A stretch of 64,000 bases of DNA from Escherichia phage DT571/2. The stretch is taken from the sequence record NC_047749.1; one strand, 5' to 3'. The notes under the pieces are model-generated. The model made no database searches. It saw nothing but the letters and a program-made list of their open reading frames with translations, and was not told the origin of the DNA. The translations under genes and the position numbers were made by a program. Numbering within the stretch: position 1 is the first letter of the stretch; each line of letters opens with the position of its first letter. Below, piece by piece: positions 4,595 to 41,975 of the stretch.

Positions 4595-5220
4595 ATCGTC
4601 GTCTCCTTATAAGGTTAATAAGTTTGCCGCCGATGGGCTTTAAAATGCACCTGATTTTTAAAGAGCGCGGCGGTAAACTTTCCGCCGTGTAGTTCGTCAT
4701 TGCCGCCCTACGAGATAAATAATAGGGAATACCCAAAAAAGGTGCAACCTTAATTTTGTAAAGAAATGTAAAGAAAGCAAATACCCGCACCGCGTCCGGC
4801 GATCGCCCAAGTTTAAAGGAAACAGGCGCGCGGATACCATAAAACCGAGCTGATTGGCAAGTAATTTTTTCATTTTTATTTGCCTTGCCCTACTTGACAA
4901 AACTTAAAAAGCTCGTGGTGACGATAAACGGGCTATCCCTTTATGATGGGATACCTGAAAAATTTACCGCGTTGTAGGACGTTTTAGGCCGCTTATCTTC
5001 GATTTAACAAATATTTAACAAAAGCAAAATTGAAAAATAGTTTGAGAAGGTATTGACTTTTTAAAATCAAGACTAAACGAGTTATTTTAAAAAATTAATT
5101 AATTGACTTTTATTTGTTGTTGTGTAGTAGAAAGATAGCAGACTAATAATTGCTAGAATGATAATCATGCTGGTGATTGTAACAGACTGAACTATTAGCA
5201 GACTACTGATCCCGGAAAAT

Positions 5221-5260
5221 CTCATTAGCCAACTAACTATCTCATTAGCCAACTAACTAT
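5221..5260. repeat. 20-bp direct repeat x2 (CTCATTAGCCAACTAACTAT)
   Basis: two identical adjacent copies. Confidence 0.9.
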
Positions 5261-5270
5261 TTCATAAGTT

Positions 5271-5450
5271 ATAATAACTATAAAAATAATCACCGTTAAA
5301 ATAATCACTATAAAAATAATCACCATTAAAATAATAACTATAGAAATAATCACCATTATAATAATCACCATTAAAATAATCACTATAAAAATAATCACCA
5401 TTAAAATAATCACTATAAAAATAATCACCATTATTATAATCACTATAAGA
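5271..5450. repeat. 15-bp tandem repeat, about 12 copies (ATAATCACYRTTAAA)
   Basis: read directly; the 68-aa ORF 5237..5443 is its translation artefact. Confidence 0.9.
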
Positions 5451-5486
5451 AACTATCGGCTTAAGTGAGAACCACTATCATTTAAG

Positions 5487-5568
5487 TTATCCACAACGTT
5501 ATCCACAGCACAAAATGATTTGACACGATAGGCGGCGATATAAAGATTTATCCACAGACTTATCCACA
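5487..5568. promoter_or_regulatory. DnaA-box cluster, 4 perfect TTATCCACA in direct orientation
   Basis: boxes at 5487, 5499, 5548, 5560; two imperfect boxes follow to about 5600. Confidence 0.7.
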
Positions 5569-5872
5569 GGTTATCCTACTGTATATTTATCCAGGGTAAA
5601 AAGATAGTGTTTACAACTGCAATCAATTTTGAGCGGCCTAAAACGCTTTCTAACGAGCTGATCGCTGTAGGGTAATATTAAAGTAAAGCCTTTACCCGTC
5701 GGCCTAGAGGCTTCGCCGTGTTTTGCTCTTTACTGCACCGCTGCGCGGTTAGCATAAAACTAGGTGTTAGGCAAGAAAAATAAAAAGTAAAGTAAACGTT
5801 GCCCCTAGAAAGAAAATAATTTTACCGGTAACATCGAAAGCGGGTAATAATTAACCTAATGTAAAGTTTTGT

Positions 5873-5901
5873 AAGGCCCGCCATAATCAGCGGCCTTTTT
5901 T
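5873..5901 (+). terminator. putative rho-independent terminator
   Basis: stem AAGGCC/GGCCTT with 13-nt loop followed by TTTTTT. Confidence 0.45.
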
Positions 5902-5965
5902 GTTATACTGCCCTTACACCGTTTAAGGACGGTTAAAAATTTCCCGAAAAATTTGGAGGCTTAAA

Positions 5966-6145
5966 ATGGTTATTTTTCGATCTATTCTGGCGGGTATCTT
6001 GGGCGCTATTTTAACTCTATTTGCTACCGCTTACGGTATTCAAGATTCTTATTGCGGTTTAGTAAATACTAAACCTATGGTTATTATTGGCGCGGGTATC
6101 GCTGTTTTTTCTTATTTGCTGGGCTGCATGAATAAAGGAGAATAA
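5966..6145 (+). CDS. small membrane protein (59 aa, not in ORF track)
   Basis: GGAGG SD then ATG; hydrophobic translation MVIFRSILAGILGAILTLFATAYG... Confidence 0.45.
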   Translation: MVIFRSILAGILGAILTLFATAYGIQDSYCGLVNTKPMVIIGAGIAVFSYLLGCMNKGE

Positions 6146-6147
6146 AA

Positions 6148-6360
6148 ATGATCCGCAACGTTTCTCTTGCTCGTTCCAAAGGTTTTAAGCTGGTGGATGT
6201 AAACACGTTCGAGCGTCCTGGTTGTAAAATCGAATATATAGCGCGGAATAAAAACGCTTTCCGCGTTACAGAAAAGAGATTCGATAAACGCGGCAACGTG
6301 ATAGCTGAAACGGTTAAATATTTTGCCACCTTTTACGCGGCCTTTCGTGGGGTATTATGA
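6148..6360 (+). CDS. hypothetical protein
   Basis: 70-aa ORF with AGGAG SD. Confidence 0.5.
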   Translation: MIRNVSLARSKGFKLVDVNTFERPGCKIEYIARNKNAFRVTEKRFDKRGNVIAETVKYFATFYAAFRGVL

Positions 6361-6482
6361 AGAGCGTTGTTATTGTTATCCTTGCAATGGTTGGCGGTTT
6401 TACCACCACCTTGTTTAGAAATGATCCTCTTTTGCTAGGGATCTTTATGCTTTTATCTGGTTATCTGATCGGGAGGTTATAA
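6357..6482 (+). CDS. small membrane peptide (41 aa)
   Basis: ATGA start/stop overlap with upstream ORF; hydrophobic. Confidence 0.35.
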   Translation: MKSVVIVILAMVGGFTTTLFRNDPLLLGIFMLLSGYLIGRL

Positions 6483-6483
6483 A

Positions 6484-6828
6484 ATGGTGATTTATGAAGG
6501 TGATCGCCTTGTTGCTGATTGCCGTCCGGCATTGTTAGCAAACTACTTAAACCAGCTTTCGCCAGTATATAAAGGCGTTATAAATATTTATGAAGGCGGG
6601 GCGCATTATAAGATTAATGCGGTCGTTGCCCGTGAACTAGCGTTTCAATTTTTAACCTTTTCATCTTGCAATATTCAGGTCATGGGTGAGGCGTTAATTG
6701 CAGAAAATGAAGATGATTTTATTAATATCTTTCGCAAGATATGCACCGAGCGCCTGATAATGAAAGGGGCATATATTCAATCCACTGCGGATAGTATTGA
6801 AACGGCTTTTCGAAAGGTGGCACAATGA
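6484..6828 (+). CDS. hypothetical protein
   Basis: 114-aa ORF with GGGAGG SD. Confidence 0.5.
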   Translation: MVIYEGDRLVADCRPALLANYLNQLSPVYKGVINIYEGGAHYKINAVVARELAFQFLTFSSCNIQVMGEALIAENEDDFINIFRKICTERLIMKGAYIQSTADSIETAFRKVAQ

Positions 6829-6966
6829 AGCTATATATTTTCGCGGGTAATGTTGAGGCTGCAAATGATTCCGCTGGTGGCGATAGCGTTCGCCATTATT
6901 GGCAAAATTATATTTACTAGGCGTAATGATCACGGGGCACAACTATCAGGGAGTGCCCCTGATTCT

Positions 6967-6991
6967 CAAATGAGAATCATTCTCATTTGAC
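6967..6991. repeat. 25-bp perfect palindrome TCAAATGAGAAT-C-ATTCTCATTTGA
   Basis: read directly; shares the AATGAGAATCATT core with the downstream 22-bp repeats. Confidence 0.85.
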
Positions 6992-7209
6992 CGCGCCCGC
7001 GATGGTTAGCACACTAATGATTAGGGTGTTACGTGTCGCCTTGTGTGATCGTTAGCGGGCTAACTAATTTTCAAGCCTCCTCCAGATTTGCCCTTGTTTT
7101 AGTATCCCCATCAAAATAAAACGCGTTAGAAAGCGATTCAGGGCGTTTTAGGCCTATATTAGAATTATTCACTGCGTAGGAATACTGTATATTTATACAG
7201 TAGAATAAC

Positions 7210-7292
7210 CTGGGGATAAGTCGGTGGATAACGCTTCAAAATGGCTAGAATTTTGTCAAGGCAAATCGTGCTGTTGATAAGTCTGTGGATAA
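7210..7292. promoter_or_regulatory. DnaA-box cluster in opposite orientation to 5487..5568
   Basis: GTGGATAAC at 7224 and TGTGGATAA at 7284, plus imperfect TGGGGATAA at 7210. Confidence 0.6.
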
Positions 7293-7299
7293 CTTAAAT

Positions 7300-7590
7300 A
7301 ACAGTGTTTCTCACTTCCGTTTTTAAATGCGAATCATTATCATTTGCATTCCACTTCTTAAATGAGAATCATTTCACTTCTTGAATAGTTCTCATTCCCT
7401 TTCTTAAATGAGAATCATTTCACTTCTTGAATAGTTCTCATTTCACTTCTTGAATAGTTCTCATTCCACTTCTTAAATGAGAATCATTCCACTTCTTAAA
7501 TGAGAATCATTCCACCTCTTAAATGAGAATGATTATCATTCGCATTCCACTTCTTAAATGCGAATGATAATCATTCTCATTCGCATTCCG
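7300..7590. repeat. about 10 tandem copies of a 22-bp unit (CACTTCTTAAATGAGAATCATT / CACTTCTTGAATAGTTCTCATT) with flanking short inverted repeats
   Basis: read directly. Confidence 0.85.
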
Positions 7591-7617
7591 GCGAGCAGGG
7601 CAATTGCCCTGCGCTTA

Positions 7618-8350
7618 TGTGCAAATCCGACAATTGCTCCAAGGGTTACGCGAGGGCATGTATGTGCAAATCCGACCCATTTTTTGGTAGTGTGCAAATC
7701 CGACCCCAAAAATTTATAAATTCGTGAGAGTGACAAATCTGTCTCCCAAAAACTCCAGCAATCACGAACTGCGTTCGAATCCTGTGGGGTATGTGCAAAT
7801 CCGACACGGTTTTTCTAGGATTAAGATGTGCGAATCCGATGAAATTTTTGTGACTTCGATGAGAGGGTGTGTGATTGTATAGGTTTGAGGAGAAGATGAG
7901 AGAGCGAGAAAAATTTTGGGGCTAGAAGTGTATGGGCGCAGGATTGGTGCGGAGCACCTGATTTGCGGGGGTTTTGGGGGATAGTGGAGATAATTTGGGG
8001 AAATTTGAGATAGGTGCAGAAAAAGTAAAATTTTATTAGCTAAAGGGGGCAATATAGCTTGACAATTGAAAATTCTTGTGGCTCTAAAAACTCAGGCAAT
8101 CATGGGCCTTCGGCCCGAAATAATGCTGCTATTTTCAGGAGATTATATGTTCCTAAAAACTTAGGCGTTTGTGCAAATCCGACCATAAATTTCTAGAAAC
8201 ACAATGTGCAAATCCGACAGTAATTCCTGGAAATGTGTTTTCAAAAAATGTCTCCTAGAAATAACCGCCCTCCCTATAACCGCCCTCCCTATAACCGGCC
8301 TAGGTATGTAACGTTGGAGGGAAACTGCCCTAGAATATGTGCAAATCCGA
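7618..8350 (+). repeat. dispersed co-oriented 14-mer TGTGCAAATCCGAC, 8 copies
   Basis: copies at 7618, 7663, 7691, 7792, 7827 (variant), 8170, 8205, 8338; several preceded by CTAGAA. Confidence 0.85.
8261..8297. repeat. 15-bp tandem repeat x2.5 (ATAACCGCCCTCCCT)
   Basis: read directly. Confidence 0.85.
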
Positions 8351-37239: not shown

Positions 37240-37772
37240 TAATAAGTAACCAATTCCTGTACAAATCGCAGGCTGTTATCACTGTTTGCGCCAGTTGCGT
37301 AAACTAATCGAGTAGATTCATAGTTGTAATCTAGAATCGTATTATCCAGATGTACATCTGCCTCTAGCTTCTGTTCGCTAAAGATTGTAGATACAAAAGC
37401 ACTTTCTATATGCCCATGTTGGTACATCTCTAGAAGAAGATTAGCTCCGCCTAGAACTACTGTTTGCTGATCTTTTAAGAACGTGGGCAATGTATCCCCA
37501 ATCTTAGAAATTGGGGTGTAAATATCATGTGTAATATCGTCTGGCAATGGACGATCAGCACGAATAAATAGGTCAGAAGTTCCAATCATACGTTCCCTAA
37601 CGGCGTATGGAAGAGCTAAATAAGTACCAGCACCAATAATAATATTATTAGGATTTAGTACATCTAATTGTGAATAAAAAGCACCTAGTTCTTCTTTAAA
37701 AGAACCCCAGGGAAGCTTACCTCGGAGGCCGAACTCCCCATTCGGCCCAACTGCATACATTGCTGTAATCAC
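37239..37772 (-). CDS. frd: dihydrofolate reductase
   Basis: 177 aa; DHFR-like N-terminus; adjacent to thyA as in T5. Confidence 0.75.
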   Translation of the reverse strand: MITAMYAVGPNGEFGLRGKLPWGSFKEELGAFYSQLDVLNPNNIIIGAGTYLALPYAVRERMIGTSDLFIRADRPLPDDITHDIYTPISKIGDTLPTFLKDQQTVVLGGANLLLEMYQHGHIESAFVSTIFSEQKLEADVHLDNTILDYNYESTRLVYATGANSDNSLRFVQELVTY

Positions 37773-38914
37773 AGGAAATCTCCAAATTCATTGCCCAGAT
37801 CTTTCAGAGTATCAGTAGAAGTCTCAGTTACCTGACCTACACGATAGGCTGCACCAATCTGGATTTCTTGTGGAGCAGGCTGTAGAGAAGTAGTATCCAA
37901 CCAGTTCATGATCCACGGAATAGGGTTTTTAGTGATTACTGGTAAGTGACTAGGCCATTCTACGCCAATGTGCATAAACGCGTTGCGTCCTACAAAGTAC
38001 AGGTACTCTTCTAACAGTTCTGCATTCAAACCAATCAGGCTACGACCGTTGAAAATGAAATGACCCCATTCAATTTCAGTTTTCAGAGTTTTCAGGAGCT
38101 GTGCTGGTGCTTTAGCCACTGCTTCATCTACCAGATCTTTGTCAAACTGCTGGAACATAATCTGGATGATTGTTTTAGACATCTGAGTATGTAAGGCTTC
38201 ATCTTTAGCAATCAATTGCAGATTTTTAGCAATACCTTGCAGAATATCGTTCTCTGCTAACGCAAAGGTACATGCAAAGGATGCGTAAAACTGCATTGCT
38301 TCCAGACCGTAGATTGCAAAATAAGCATCTAACAGTTTAGCCTGAGTTTCACGCTTAACTTCAGGGAACTCAGTTTCTGGATACGTATTGTCACCACGAT
38401 GATCACGTACTGCGATGAAATACTGACCTAACTGGTACAGTTCATCAAACAGTTCAACAGAATCTGCGATACGTGCGAATGCTTCTTGGTTTTTGGTTAC
38501 AGAATCAATAAATTCTGCTGGATCAGTCAGCACATTACGAATAATATTACTATATGCACGGCTATGCAGATCTTCGAAGTAGCTCCACTGCTTGAGCATA
38601 CCTTCCAATTCTGGACGGCTTACCAGCGGCATAATAGCTGCTTCAGGCGCTCGACTGATAAAGGAATCAGTTTGAGTCTGCCATGCTAAGTTCAGGAGTG
38701 TGATTTCCTGAATTTCACGTGGGAGATTGGGCCATTGTTTCTTATCGGCTTCTAAACTGATTTCTGTCTCAGTCCAAAATTGAGAGCGAGCTAATAACGC
38801 CAGCCTTTCCAGCTCTGGATGGGCTACTCGTACATAATCTGCGATACCTAGAGAATCACCGAGAAATAGATCTTTATTGGTATGATCCCAGTTTAAGTTA
38901 AGTAAAGTTGTCAT
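37769..38914 (-). CDS. nrdB: ribonucleotide reductase class Ia beta subunit
   Basis: 381 aa; di-iron ligand blocks including EALHT. Confidence 0.9.
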   Translation of the reverse strand: MTTLLNLNWDHTNKDLFLGDSLGIADYVRVAHPELERLALLARSQFWTETEISLEADKKQWPNLPREIQEITLLNLAWQTQTDSFISRAPEAAIMPLVSRPELEGMLKQWSYFEDLHSRAYSNIIRNVLTDPAEFIDSVTKNQEAFARIADSVELFDELYQLGQYFIAVRDHRGDNTYPETEFPEVKRETQAKLLDAYFAIYGLEAMQFYASFACTFALAENDILQGIAKNLQLIAKDEALHTQMSKTIIQIMFQQFDKDLVDEAVAKAPAQLLKTLKTEIEWGHFIFNGRSLIGLNAELLEEYLYFVGRNAFMHIGVEWPSHLPVITKNPIPWIMNWLDTTSLQPAPQEIQIGAAYRVGQVTETSTDTLKDLGNEFGDFL

Positions 38915-38922
38915 TAGTTCTC

Positions 38923-39438
38923 CTATTTATCTGTGTTTCTAAGTAGTGTTGGATCTTTGGTTATAGAGAGGATTAAAGAATCTCGATACTCTATCGCCTC
39001 TTCTAGAGTTGGAAGAGTTTTCACGTATTCTTTTCCGTTAATGGATTTTCTAACTTGAAATCCAGACCCTTTCTTCCGAATATTCTTAGTACCCAATATA
39101 TTGTTTTTACTGGTTTTTCTATTTTGACTATTTAACTGCCAGTCTGCTTCTCTTAGATTAGTCCACTTATAGTTTAGTGGATCTCCATCTATATGGTCAA
39201 CCATAACTTTGGGTAAGTTTCCTGTCATGTACAGAAAAGCAATATTTTGTGCAGGGTACTTCTTACCCTTGATTTGTATTACTAAGTCTTTTCGGTTAGG
39301 ATCTACTGAGTGTGGTTTTAAACAACCAGCAGGTAGTCCTCTTACTTTATTGTGTACTTCTTGGTTATTTAACCAAGTAAATGTTCCTTCATCTGGATTA
39401 TACTCCAGAATCCTTTTTAATTCATCTTGTGTTATCAA
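38923..39438 (-). CDS. HNH homing endonuclease
   Basis: 171 aa; HNH motif VDHIDGDPLNYKWTNLR followed by AP2-like region; sits between nrdB and nrdA. Confidence 0.8.
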   Translation of the reverse strand: MITQDELKRILEYNPDEGTFTWLNNQEVHNKVRGLPAGCLKPHSVDPNRKDLVIQIKGKKYPAQNIAFLYMTGNLPKVMVDHIDGDPLNYKWTNLREADWQLNSQNRKTSKNNILGTKNIRKKGSGFQVRKSINGKEYVKTLPTLEEAIEYRDSLILSITKDPTLLRNTDK

Positions 39439-39539
39439 AACTAATCTCCTTAACTAATAGAGATATTATAGCAAATCAGATAGCGATTAGCAAGTAAAAT
39501 TTCAAAGAAAAAGGAGACCCGAAGATCTCCTTGTTTTTA

Positions 39540-41975
39540 TTAAATAGTACAACCGCCTGATGCACAACCGGCTGCTTCTTCACCAGCCCCACCACCATTT
39601 GCAGTGTTGAAGTTAGCATAATACCAAGTTTTCCACCCGTATTTAACAGCAGTCATGAAATCACGAACTACTACTGGGCCAGGAATAATTTCATTCTCAA
39701 ACTTGGTGTAGTCATAGTACATATTCGTACTGATAGACTGACTGAAGAATTTCTGCATAGTTGCTACCCATTTGATCCATTCAATACGATCCACATCGTA
39801 AGCCAGTTTATAGCTCATGAGAGTATCCCAATCAGTTGCACCTGGAGCGATTGCAATTACTTTATTCACTGCACTACCCTTAATAGATACAATCTTACGG
39901 GGTGGTTCAATAGAGTTAGTAACCCCTAACAGAACGGAAGAACTTTCTCCTGGCATCTGAGCAGTCAGAACAGAGTTACGCATACCGTATTTCAGAATAT
40001 CTGCACGCAGAGATTCCCAATCCATTTCTAGACCTACTGATACCAGCTCATCAACAGTTTTCTTGTACGTGTCGATTACCAGAGTTCCTTTGGATGGTTT
40101 AGTACGATTAAACCATTCACATGCACCTTGCTCTTTGGCTAGACGTACAGAGGCTTTATGCAGGAAGTAAGACAGTTTTTCAGCTTCACGATGAATCCAG
40201 TTACGTGCTTCAACGCCTTCATAAGCCAAACCTTCCGCCGCCATTGCACCTGCTGCGTTCATCAGACCAATACCAACGTTACGACGTTTCTTAGCTGTAT
40301 ATTCCATAGTTGGGAACGGATAATCCTGAATTTCAATAATTGTATCAACGAATTTCAGGAGGATGTAGCAAGTTTTTTCCCACTCAGCCAGAGATTCCAT
40401 GCGTCCAAGTACAACACCACCTAAGTTACACAGAGATACTTCACCAATATCCTCCGGCTTCATTTGATCAAGTTGTTCTTTTGTTTTATACAGCTCTGTA
40501 ATGTGGTGGAATGGGCGTGTAGGCTGATTAATTTCAAGGCATAAATTACTCATACGGATTGGATCAAGGAAGTTACCGTGACGATTAGATTCCCCGATGT
40601 GGTGCGCATACATACGTCCTGTTTCCATTCTGATACGTAGCCAAGTATCTAGGATTTCTTTTGCAGAGACTTTAGGAGCTGCTGGAACTGTTTTTCCTTC
40701 ATGGTCGATCTTTGTAAGAGATGCCACACGTTTCTCCGCTGCCACATAGATTTCTTCAAATTTAGCCTCGTCATCACTATAAAACGCTTCATGAACTTCT
40801 GGAGCATAGAAGTATGACATTAGCGTAATATCTTCATTTTTCAGATAACGTTTTAACAAAAGATTATTAAAGTTCAGAGAATAATCCATCTTATCGATTT
40901 TATTCTCGTCTGTAGCACGTTGCTGCTTAACCTGCATCAATTGGATGATTTCAGGGTCAAAGTAAGGATAGGATACAGTAGCAGAACCACCACGAGTTTG
41001 CTGAGTATTAGCCTTTACTGATCGGTCAATGTGTCGATAATATGGCAGTTTTCCGGAATGCGGGAATGCCCCGTTTCGCACCGGATCAGCAATTGATCGG
41101 CTTTCAAGATGATACCCGATTCCCGCTCTGGCTGCAACCATTTTGAAGACGATGTGTTCGGCTGTGTCGATTGAATCCAATGTGTCAGTGGAATCAACGA
41201 GGCAACAACTAGCAAATCCACGGTCACTAGAGCGCAAGCCAACCAATGGCGGCGTAGGAACGTTGATCTTGTGGAGCGACATTGCATTGTAGAGATCGAT
41301 TGCATCTAGAATTGTCCAATTAGGTTGAGATAACATCGCCATTGCCATACCCATATAGGCAAATTGCGGGGTTTCGTAAATTTCGCCAGTTGCGATATTA
41401 CGACGGGAATACTTATCAAAGAATTGTTTCAGTCCTCCACTAGTGAAAAGACGGTCGCGATCATGGTCGATAACCTGATTCAGAGCTTCAAATTGCTCAT
41501 CGGTAATCCATGCACTCATGTCTTCCCATGCACCTACACTAACCATATGATCGTGGAAGAAGCGTAGGGAAGGTGGTTCGAAGGAATCATAAAGACGTTT
41601 ACGCATCTGCGCAAGACGTAATTCCTTTGCGGGCACGTCGTATGCTGGGTTATCTTTGATAAGACTTTCAGCAGCTTTAATTAACGCATCCATCAGAGTA
41701 TCGGAATCTACAACCCCTTTAGGTAGAGTTTTTTGAGCAGCCATAGTAATGGCTGACCAACTTACATCAACTGTTTTGCAACCATACTCTGCCCAACCAT
41801 TGAGTTTTTCAGGAGCAAAGTCTTCTACAGTACCGTCACGTTTAATTACTTTTTCAATGCGATGGCTCATTTGGTTTTCCTTTTTATGGTTATCAGGATT
41901 TAGGAAATAGTTTACTTTATTCTCAGTCATTTGGCAAATAAAATTTTCTGATAGAAAAGGCCCGAGTATTTTCAT
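39540..41975 (-). CDS. nrdA: ribonucleotide reductase class Ia alpha subunit (start may be an internal Met)
   Basis: 811 aa; ATP-cone VIKRDGT, catalytic Cys blocks, C-terminal CxxC tail. Confidence 0.9.
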   Translation of the reverse strand: MKILGPFLSENFICQMTENKVNYFLNPDNHKKENQMSHRIEKVIKRDGTVEDFAPEKLNGWAEYGCKTVDVSWSAITMAAQKTLPKGVVDSDTLMDALIKAAESLIKDNPAYDVPAKELRLAQMRKRLYDSFEPPSLRFFHDHMVSVGAWEDMSAWITDEQFEALNQVIDHDRDRLFTSGGLKQFFDKYSRRNIATGEIYETPQFAYMGMAMAMLSQPNWTILDAIDLYNAMSLHKINVPTPPLVGLRSSDRGFASCCLVDSTDTLDSIDTAEHIVFKMVAARAGIGYHLESRSIADPVRNGAFPHSGKLPYYRHIDRSVKANTQQTRGGSATVSYPYFDPEIIQLMQVKQQRATDENKIDKMDYSLNFNNLLLKRYLKNEDITLMSYFYAPEVHEAFYSDDEAKFEEIYVAAEKRVASLTKIDHEGKTVPAAPKVSAKEILDTWLRIRMETGRMYAHHIGESNRHGNFLDPIRMSNLCLEINQPTRPFHHITELYKTKEQLDQMKPEDIGEVSLCNLGGVVLGRMESLAEWEKTCYILLKFVDTIIEIQDYPFPTMEYTAKKRRNVGIGLMNAAGAMAAEGLAYEGVEARNWIHREAEKLSYFLHKASVRLAKEQGACEWFNRTKPSKGTLVIDTYKKTVDELVSVGLEMDWESLRADILKYGMRNSVLTAQMPGESSSVLLGVTNSIEPPRKIVSIKGSAVNKVIAIAPGATDWDTLMSYKLAYDVDRIEWIKWVATMQKFFSQSISTNMYYDYTKFENEIIPGPVVVRDFMTAVKYGWKTWYYANFNTANGGGAGEEAAGCASGGCTI

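Follow-up and report, generated by a model that had tools for sequence, protein, structure and literature searches.

The window analysed here is a stretch of 64,000 nucleotides from Escherichia phage DT571/2. On its minus strand, between the two genes of ribonucleotide reductase, lies an intergenic ORF (38923..39438) of 171 aa with a TTG start codon and a TAG stop codon. This is a homing endonuclease gene, the orthologue of hegH (P-TflVIII) of phage T5, as judged from the ORF list, a 100% match to the annotation of phage DT57C (DT57C_000073), the Pfam family HNH_3, PHROG 99 and dN/dS. The upstream neighbour is nrdA, which encodes the large subunit (39540..41975, minus strand), and the downstream neighbour is nrdB, which encodes the small subunit (37769..38914, minus strand). 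Both are identified by Pfam and by annotation and both are intact. A first-pass annotation of the letters alone had proposed a free-standing HNH homing endonuclease between these genes. The ORF list, the Pfam matches of the neighbours and the DT57C annotation agree that the ORF is real and so placed, and it is free-standing, being part of no intron or intein and carrying a ribosome-binding site of its own. No paralogue of the endonuclease gene was found elsewhere in the 64-kb window.

The intergenic region carries a compact set of expression signals, all on the minus strand. An intrinsic terminator follows nrdA (39511..39532, AAGGAGATCTTCGGGTCTCCTT then a T-run); it was found by a terminator scan and is annotated in the BF23 and T5 records. 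Next comes an early sigma-70 promoter (39465..39493, TTGCTA-17 nt-TATAAT with an extended -10 TG), which matches at 10 of 12 positions in a promoter scan. The T5 and BF23 records also annotate a promoter here, and it is nearly invariant across all 16 empty-site loci that lack a nuclease gene. A Shine-Dalgarno sequence, AAGGAG (39446..39451), can be read directly 7 nt upstream of the TTG and is absent from the empty-site phages. At the other end of the gene the TAG stop overlaps the AGGAG ribosome-binding site of nrdB, and the nrdB ATG is at 38914, 8 nt past the TAG. The promoter drives nrdB directly in the empty-site phages, while here the endonuclease gene intervenes; nrdB is probably co-transcribed with it.

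Two annotation matters concern this region. The longest ORF of nrdA encodes 811 aa and is the form annotated in T5 (AY543070), while DT57C and several relatives annotate 776 aa from an internal Met (MSHRIEKV...), so that the GenBank start is 35 codons later, at 41870. A weak ATP-cone match in nrdA begins at this internal Met. On the plus strand, an ORF at 39209-39457 was considered and rejected as an antisense artefact: its translation contains no HNH motif, and the pattern of substitutions is the one expected of the minus-strand frame. GenBank DT57C_000074 (approximately 39227-39457, plus strand), which lies antisense inside the endonuclease gene and is labelled 'putative H-N-H-endonuclease P-TflVIII', looks like an annotation artefact from its sequence.

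The gene itself is already known. Over a region of 4.3 kb the identity is 99.9% with Escherichia phage DT57C and 95.6% with T5. In the DT57C record DT57C_000073 is labelled 'family HNH nicking homing endonuclease F-TflVIII', and the three T5 records read 'hegH, putative H-N-H-endonuclease P-TflVIII', 'putative endonuclease' and 'putative HNH endonuclease' (T5.095 / AAS77141; AAX12027; AAU05232). The T5 copy shares the site, the promoter and the neighbours; the gene-plus-spacer DNA is 97.4% identical and the protein 98-99% identical. It differs at the 3' end, where the DT57C TAG is CAG in T5, so that the T5 ORF is three codons longer (174 aa) and its TAA overlaps the nrdB ATG (TAATG). Niu et al. 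2012 discussed a T5-like nuclease gene between nrdA and nrdB, likened it to T4 mobE and called the region a hotspot (PMC3326045). In a literature search for F-TflVIII, P-TflVIII and hegH no assay was found; F-TflVIII occurred in none of the papers searched, and P-TflVIII was named only in that genome paper (PMC3326045). What is added here beyond annotation is a quantified distribution and a linked block of nrdB nt 1-126 with the target that it implies. The consequences for annotation are small, and genes of this class are very common. What the locus offers is a clean and data-rich natural case of intronless homing, with hundreds of T5-like genomes, a sharp empty site and competing lineages.

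The protein has three parts: an N-terminal beta-rich domain (aa 1-62, 39253..39438), an HNH (beta-beta-alpha-metal) catalytic core (aa 79-111, 39106..39204) and a C-terminal domain of three strands and a helix with a predicted AP2/ERF fold (aa 117-160, 38959..39090), all encoded on the minus strand. The HNH motif named in the first-pass annotation is confirmed by a match to Pfam HNH_3 (PF13392) of 34 bits, above the 24.8-bit cutoff (E 2.3e-8), and by a match to PHROG 99 'HNH endonuclease' (E 3e-46). The closest solved relative is I-HmuI (PDB 1U3E), with an E of 0.11 from the single sequence and 3.8e-6 from the family profile. Residues D81, H82, N94 and N103 align with D74, H75, N87 and N96 of I-HmuI, so that the Asp-His general base pair, the structural Asn and the metal-ligand Asn are all present, on a beta-beta-alpha fold. 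In the homologue alignment (A1) D81, H82, D84, G85 and N89 are invariant and N94 is nearly invariant. In the AlphaFold model (pLDDT 82) a beta domain at the N-terminus is followed by the beta-beta-alpha core and then, after a linker of low confidence (residues 107-113), by three strands and a helix. By analogy with I-HmuI the N-terminal beta domain is probably DNA-contacting. I-HmuI, a nicking HNH endonuclease, differs in being intron-encoded (SPO1) and in having helical or helix-turn-helix modules at the C-terminus, whereas the present gene is free-standing and its C-terminal domain is predicted to have an AP2 fold. The family is very large: an exhaustive search returned 28,890 cluster representatives at E<=1e-3, although a word-indexed protein search had recovered only 11 relatives.

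The AP2-like DNA-binding region, also part of the first-pass annotation, stands in the predicted fold and fails in the profile. In the model the C-terminal domain is a three-stranded antiparallel sheet packed on one helix, the arrangement that defines the AP2/ERF fold. The Pfam AP2 profile (PF00847) gave no match to the whole protein at E<=0.1 or to the isolated C-terminus at E<=10, nor did the isolated C-terminal domains of the nuclease lineages A to D described below match it. One relative (P0008, 40% identical) does match AP2 weakly, at 28.5 bits where the cutoff is 33.3 bits, in the part that lines up with the C-terminal region. The term AP2-like is correct at fold level only, on the strength of the predicted fold and this one relative.

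HNH_3 with AP2 is a known homing-endonuclease architecture (PMC5714182; PMC10448857), and HNH-AP2 genes often adjoin ribonucleotide reductase genes (PMC10448857; PMC5714182). The described members of the class (Magnani et al. 2004; the IPA-HNH of ICP1-like phages, Barth et al. 2023) are likewise free-standing, with an N-terminal HNH and a C-terminal AP2. The present protein differs from them in that its AP2 module is visible at fold level only. In addition, the nuclease domains of IPA-HNH are described as too divergent for Pfam HNH_3 (PMC10448857), whereas the present protein matches HNH_3 directly. The T5 HNH endonucleases of a 2004 paper are site-specific, come from the same phage group and belong to the same naming series as P-TflVIII; they lie in the region of the tRNA genes and were biochemically tested, while P-TflVIII is putative. 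F-TflIV is placed in the classical HNH group (PMC5714182).

The proposal that this is a homing-type gene was borne out by the nrdA-nrdB junctions of relatives. Rather than being present at the identical site in all of them, the gene was found in 73 of about 445 T5-like records, a count by sequence match in which the genomic position is confirmed for part of the copies, and many sites are empty. A DNA search with the gene and its spacers matched 440 records, only 73 of which contain the gene region; the others match a stretch of approximately 77 nt with the terminator and promoter. The tblastn results are bimodal, with 73 phage records at 80% identity or more and every other match below 60%. 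The site is empty in BF23 and in 15 of 26 T5-like loci from IMG/VR, which have a spacer of 106-107 bp; the other 11 are occupied.

The empty site defines the insertion sharply. The spacer is 625 nt in the occupied DT57C against 106-107 nt when empty, and the empty form is nearly invariant in the 16 empty-site loci: the terminator, the promoter with its TATAAT, 'attcct' and then 'gaaatagtgagaaagaggaaaatca' before the ATG. When DT57C and T5 are aligned to BF23, and the spacer lengths and upstream sequences of all loci are compared, an insertion of approximately 518 nt is placed at 38940..39458 (minus strand). It begins a few bases past the -10 element and ends approximately 25 nt before the nrdB ATG, each boundary being accurate to within a few nt. 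The 25 nt left before the ATG (38915-38939) correspond to the nrdB 5' UTR in diverged form. Because the insertion starts just after the -10 element and spans the ribosome-binding site, the nuclease gene lies behind the early promoter of nrdB and brought its own ribosome-binding site. A gene that some close relatives have and others lack, at a single site that is cleanly empty in the latter, behaves as a free-standing mobile gene does.

Other nucleases also occur in this gap. Among the occupied loci several lineages can be told apart, with 31-44% identity to each other, at least four of them in addition to the lineage of the present gene (lineage A), and all have the layout of an HNH core and a C-terminal domain. 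Lineage A comprises the present gene, T5, phiAPCEc03, NR01, SHSML-45 and others (73 records). The remainder are lineage B (SB13 type, 29 records), B2 (phiLLS type, 7 records), C (FFH_1 / SP01 / mar003J3 type, 44 records), C2 (H8 type, 4 records) and D (locus L026 of IMG/VR, also IrmaTschudi and S116, 34 records). Together some lineage occupies roughly 43% of T5-like records, with position confirmed for part of the copies. Lineage C is inserted approximately 60 nt further upstream, where the terminator is replaced and the promoter and leader are intact. Lineages B, C and D have nrdB 5' haplotypes of their own, which end at approximately nt 135-138.

Several of these loci show further peculiarities. 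An SP01-type locus (L031) combines a type C nuclease and an empty-type promoter and leader with an nrdB 5' haplotype that otherwise occurs only with nuclease A; one nuclease may have displaced another there, or the haplotype may be a nuclease-free resistant allele. In an H8-type locus (L027), whose record carries no annotation, the type C2 ORF is truncated (145 aa against 168 aa) and nrdB appears frameshifted near nt 57, which may be sequencing errors or real decay. In vB_Eco_mar003J3 an extra HNH gene, 'hegJ_1, P-TflX', lies between frd and nrdB (positions 314-826 of locus L006) besides the type C nuclease, so that nrdB is flanked by two nuclease genes.

Within lineage A the carriers are scattered on a backbone tree built from nrdA and nrdB with the junction left out. 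Their distribution is patchy and polyphyletic, and the nearest neighbours of carriers are often empty, as in the carrier/empty pairs L010 (NR01 type) and L018 (98.6%), T5 and BF23 (97.2%), and DT57C and L009 (95.7%). The gene region of DT57C is 96-98% identical to that of eight of the nine other carriers examined, while the flank bins are mostly 85-96% identical, with extremes of 77% and 98%. For T5 and phiAPCEc03 the similarity to DT57C is in some bins of the flanks as high as in the gene region, and in the NR01/JNwz02 sub-lineage (A2) the gene region is approximately 92% identical to DT57C, no better than the flanks. Part of the patchiness could come from ordinary recombination and loss, as T5-like phages recombine heavily.

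The gene is under purifying selection: dN/dS is 0.02-0.09 in seven pairwise comparisons and stays very low along the entire ORF. Of ten copies, nine are intact. The tenth, from Salmonella phage 8sent65 (MT653145, locus L035), is frameshifted by two indels and stops at codon 139; it is either a decaying gene or poor sequence. The MT653145 record annotates neither the nuclease gene nor nrdA.

Linkage between the gene and its flanks is confined to the start of nrdB. A site-by-site display and an association scan of 10 carriers against 16 empty-site phages define a haplotype block of nrdB nt 1-126 (38789..38914, minus strand). It contains all 26 flank sites with an allele-frequency difference of at least 0.8, 13 of which are fixed. 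Neither the rest of nrdB (nt 127-1146) nor the final 1000 nt of nrdA contains a strongly associated site, although they hold 252 and 268 polymorphic sites, respectively. The core of the linkage is at approximately nt 87-126: SHSML-45 and SLGBLB0002 are mosaic at nt 18-54 and A-type from approximately nt 88 to 126. As a population signature this is the pattern of co-conversion. Intronless homing always co-converts the stretch that separates the nuclease gene from its cut. With linkage complete up to nt 126 and lost abruptly there, a target near nt 87-130 is therefore consistent with the data, and the site is predicted to lie in the 5' end of nrdB. The end of the block at nt 126 may, however, mark the first invariant stretch (nt ~127-146, FW motif), where recombination resolves, and not the cleavage site.

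Very probably, then, the free-standing gene encodes a functional homing endonuclease that belongs to the I-HmuI-like HNH_3 group, and the mechanism that we propose is as follows. An element of approximately 518 nt, made up of a ribosome-binding site and an ORF, would have come to lie between the early sigma-70 promoter and the start codon of nrdB. Because the gene lies directly behind an early promoter, the nuclease should be made early, its ORF being the first on the nrdB transcript. A long DNA site would be read by the beta domain at the N-terminus and the AP2-fold domain at the C-terminus, and the single HNH active site (D81, H82, N94, N103) would cut one strand. When a carrier and a T5-like phage without the gene infect the same cell, the rival's nrdB would be cut in its 5' end, with approximately nt 87-130 as the most likely place. 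Recombination-dependent repair on the carrier's DNA would then transfer the endonuclease gene together with nrdB nt 1-126 beside it; the nrdB 5' haplotype of the carrier itself would be the cleavage-resistant allele. The 126-nt linked flank gives a precise prediction of the position of the cut. If the prediction is true, this would be a second, independent nrdA-nrdB nuclease that attacks the same nrdB codons, and the HNH-AP2 nickases that have been characterised and have a long recognition site would gain a further member.

Other roles for the nuclease have to be weighed against homing. It could serve as a weapon of exclusion between phages that damages the nrd region of co-infecting T5-like phages, its spread being a by-product. 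Expression from an early promoter and the competition at one locus of several nuclease lineages with private nrdB 5' haplotypes are in keeping with such a role, and the low dN/dS suggests a function maintained over long periods. Mechanistically, however, this is the same as homing and is inseparable from it by sequence, and the tight linkage to a short flank together with the polyphyletic distribution show that the gene moves. We consider exclusion as the primary role unlikely. Less likely by a good margin is a domesticated or decaying relic that no longer cuts and is kept for the ribosome-binding site of nrdB, for translational coupling or as an AP2-type regulator of nrd. The overlap of the stop codon with the nrdB AGGAG, the T5 ORF that runs into the nrdB ATG, the weak TTG start codon, the frameshifted 8sent65 copy and the lack of published activity in the literature search all point that way. 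Against a relic, the catalytic residues are all conserved and dN/dS is very low over the whole ORF. More than half of the T5-like phages have no gene at this site and possess an nrdB ribosome-binding site of their own. The recent spread implied by the identities (96-98% in the gene region, mostly 85-96% in the flanks) would take an active drive or recombination at a very high frequency.

An enzyme that makes the natural single-strand interruptions (nicks) of T5 virion DNA was also considered, since I-HmuI-like HNH enzymes and T4 MobE nick one strand (PMC2790892) and the DT57C record itself uses the label 'nicking homing endonuclease F-TflVIII'. Most T5-like phages are without the gene, and BF23 is reported to have multiple specific nicks like T5 (PMC10644984), yet its nrdA-nrdB site is empty. 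This idea was rejected as hardly credible. A homing endonuclease remains the preferred reading.

The closest parallel in niche is T4 MobE, whose gene also lies in an nrdA-nrdB gap. Wilson and Edgell showed that the nick made by MobE in T2 nrdB falls in the non-coding strand, at nt 122-126, with recombination points within the first 189 nt of nrdB (PMC2790892). An alignment of the T4 and DT57C NrdB proteins, with an offset of one codon and collinearity of T2 and T4 at the 5' end assumed, puts the MobE nick at nt ~119-123 of DT57C nrdB, close to the end of the linked block at nt 126. In both systems the target would thus lie in the 5' end of the neighbouring nrdB, away from the insertion point, which for the present gene is a prediction. 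The differences are considerable. MobE has no detectable sequence similarity to the present protein (BLASTP E 9.9), it belongs to the classical HNH group and not to the HNH_3 / I-HmuI group (PMC5714182), and no AP2 match is on record for it. The mobE gene is promoterless and read through from nrdA, while the present gene lies behind a terminator and directly after a strong promoter. Membership in the T4 Mob family (MobA-E) was rejected on the BLASTP result and the different His-Me finger groups; the analogy is one of niche. Because the two proteins are unrelated in sequence and belong to different groups, any shared target region would be a convergence.

A broader reading of the locus can be offered tentatively. 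The nrdA-nrdB gap of T5-like phages might be a contested landing site, where at least five distantly related HNH-AP2 lineages replace each other, with private nrdB 5' haplotypes that all end at approximately nt 126-138, before the invariant FW-coding stretch and at the position homologous to the MobE nick. We regard this as possible but doubtful. If true, two HNH groups in two unrelated phage families would have arrived by convergence at the same few nrdB codons, and the SP01-type genomes, with their type C nuclease, empty-type UTR and A-type nrdB haplotype, would be footprints of nuclease displacement.

A separate observation concerns nrdA. In Salmonella phage vB_SLGBLB0002 (positions 4627-7974 of locus L037) this gene has an in-frame insertion of 304 aa after Q326 of the 811-aa NrdA. 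The same extra stretch of approximately 910 nt is present in nrdA of SHSML-45, Shivani and vB_Sen_SG_WM_RUS_R2, and DT57C is without it. Pfam gave no name to the insertion of vB_SLGBLB0002. It starts with a Cys (CYSEDTEVLT...), ends in ...VCGN followed by a Ser and contains a LAGLIDADG-like stretch (RIALQADGS); from its sequence it looks like an intein with a homing endonuclease.
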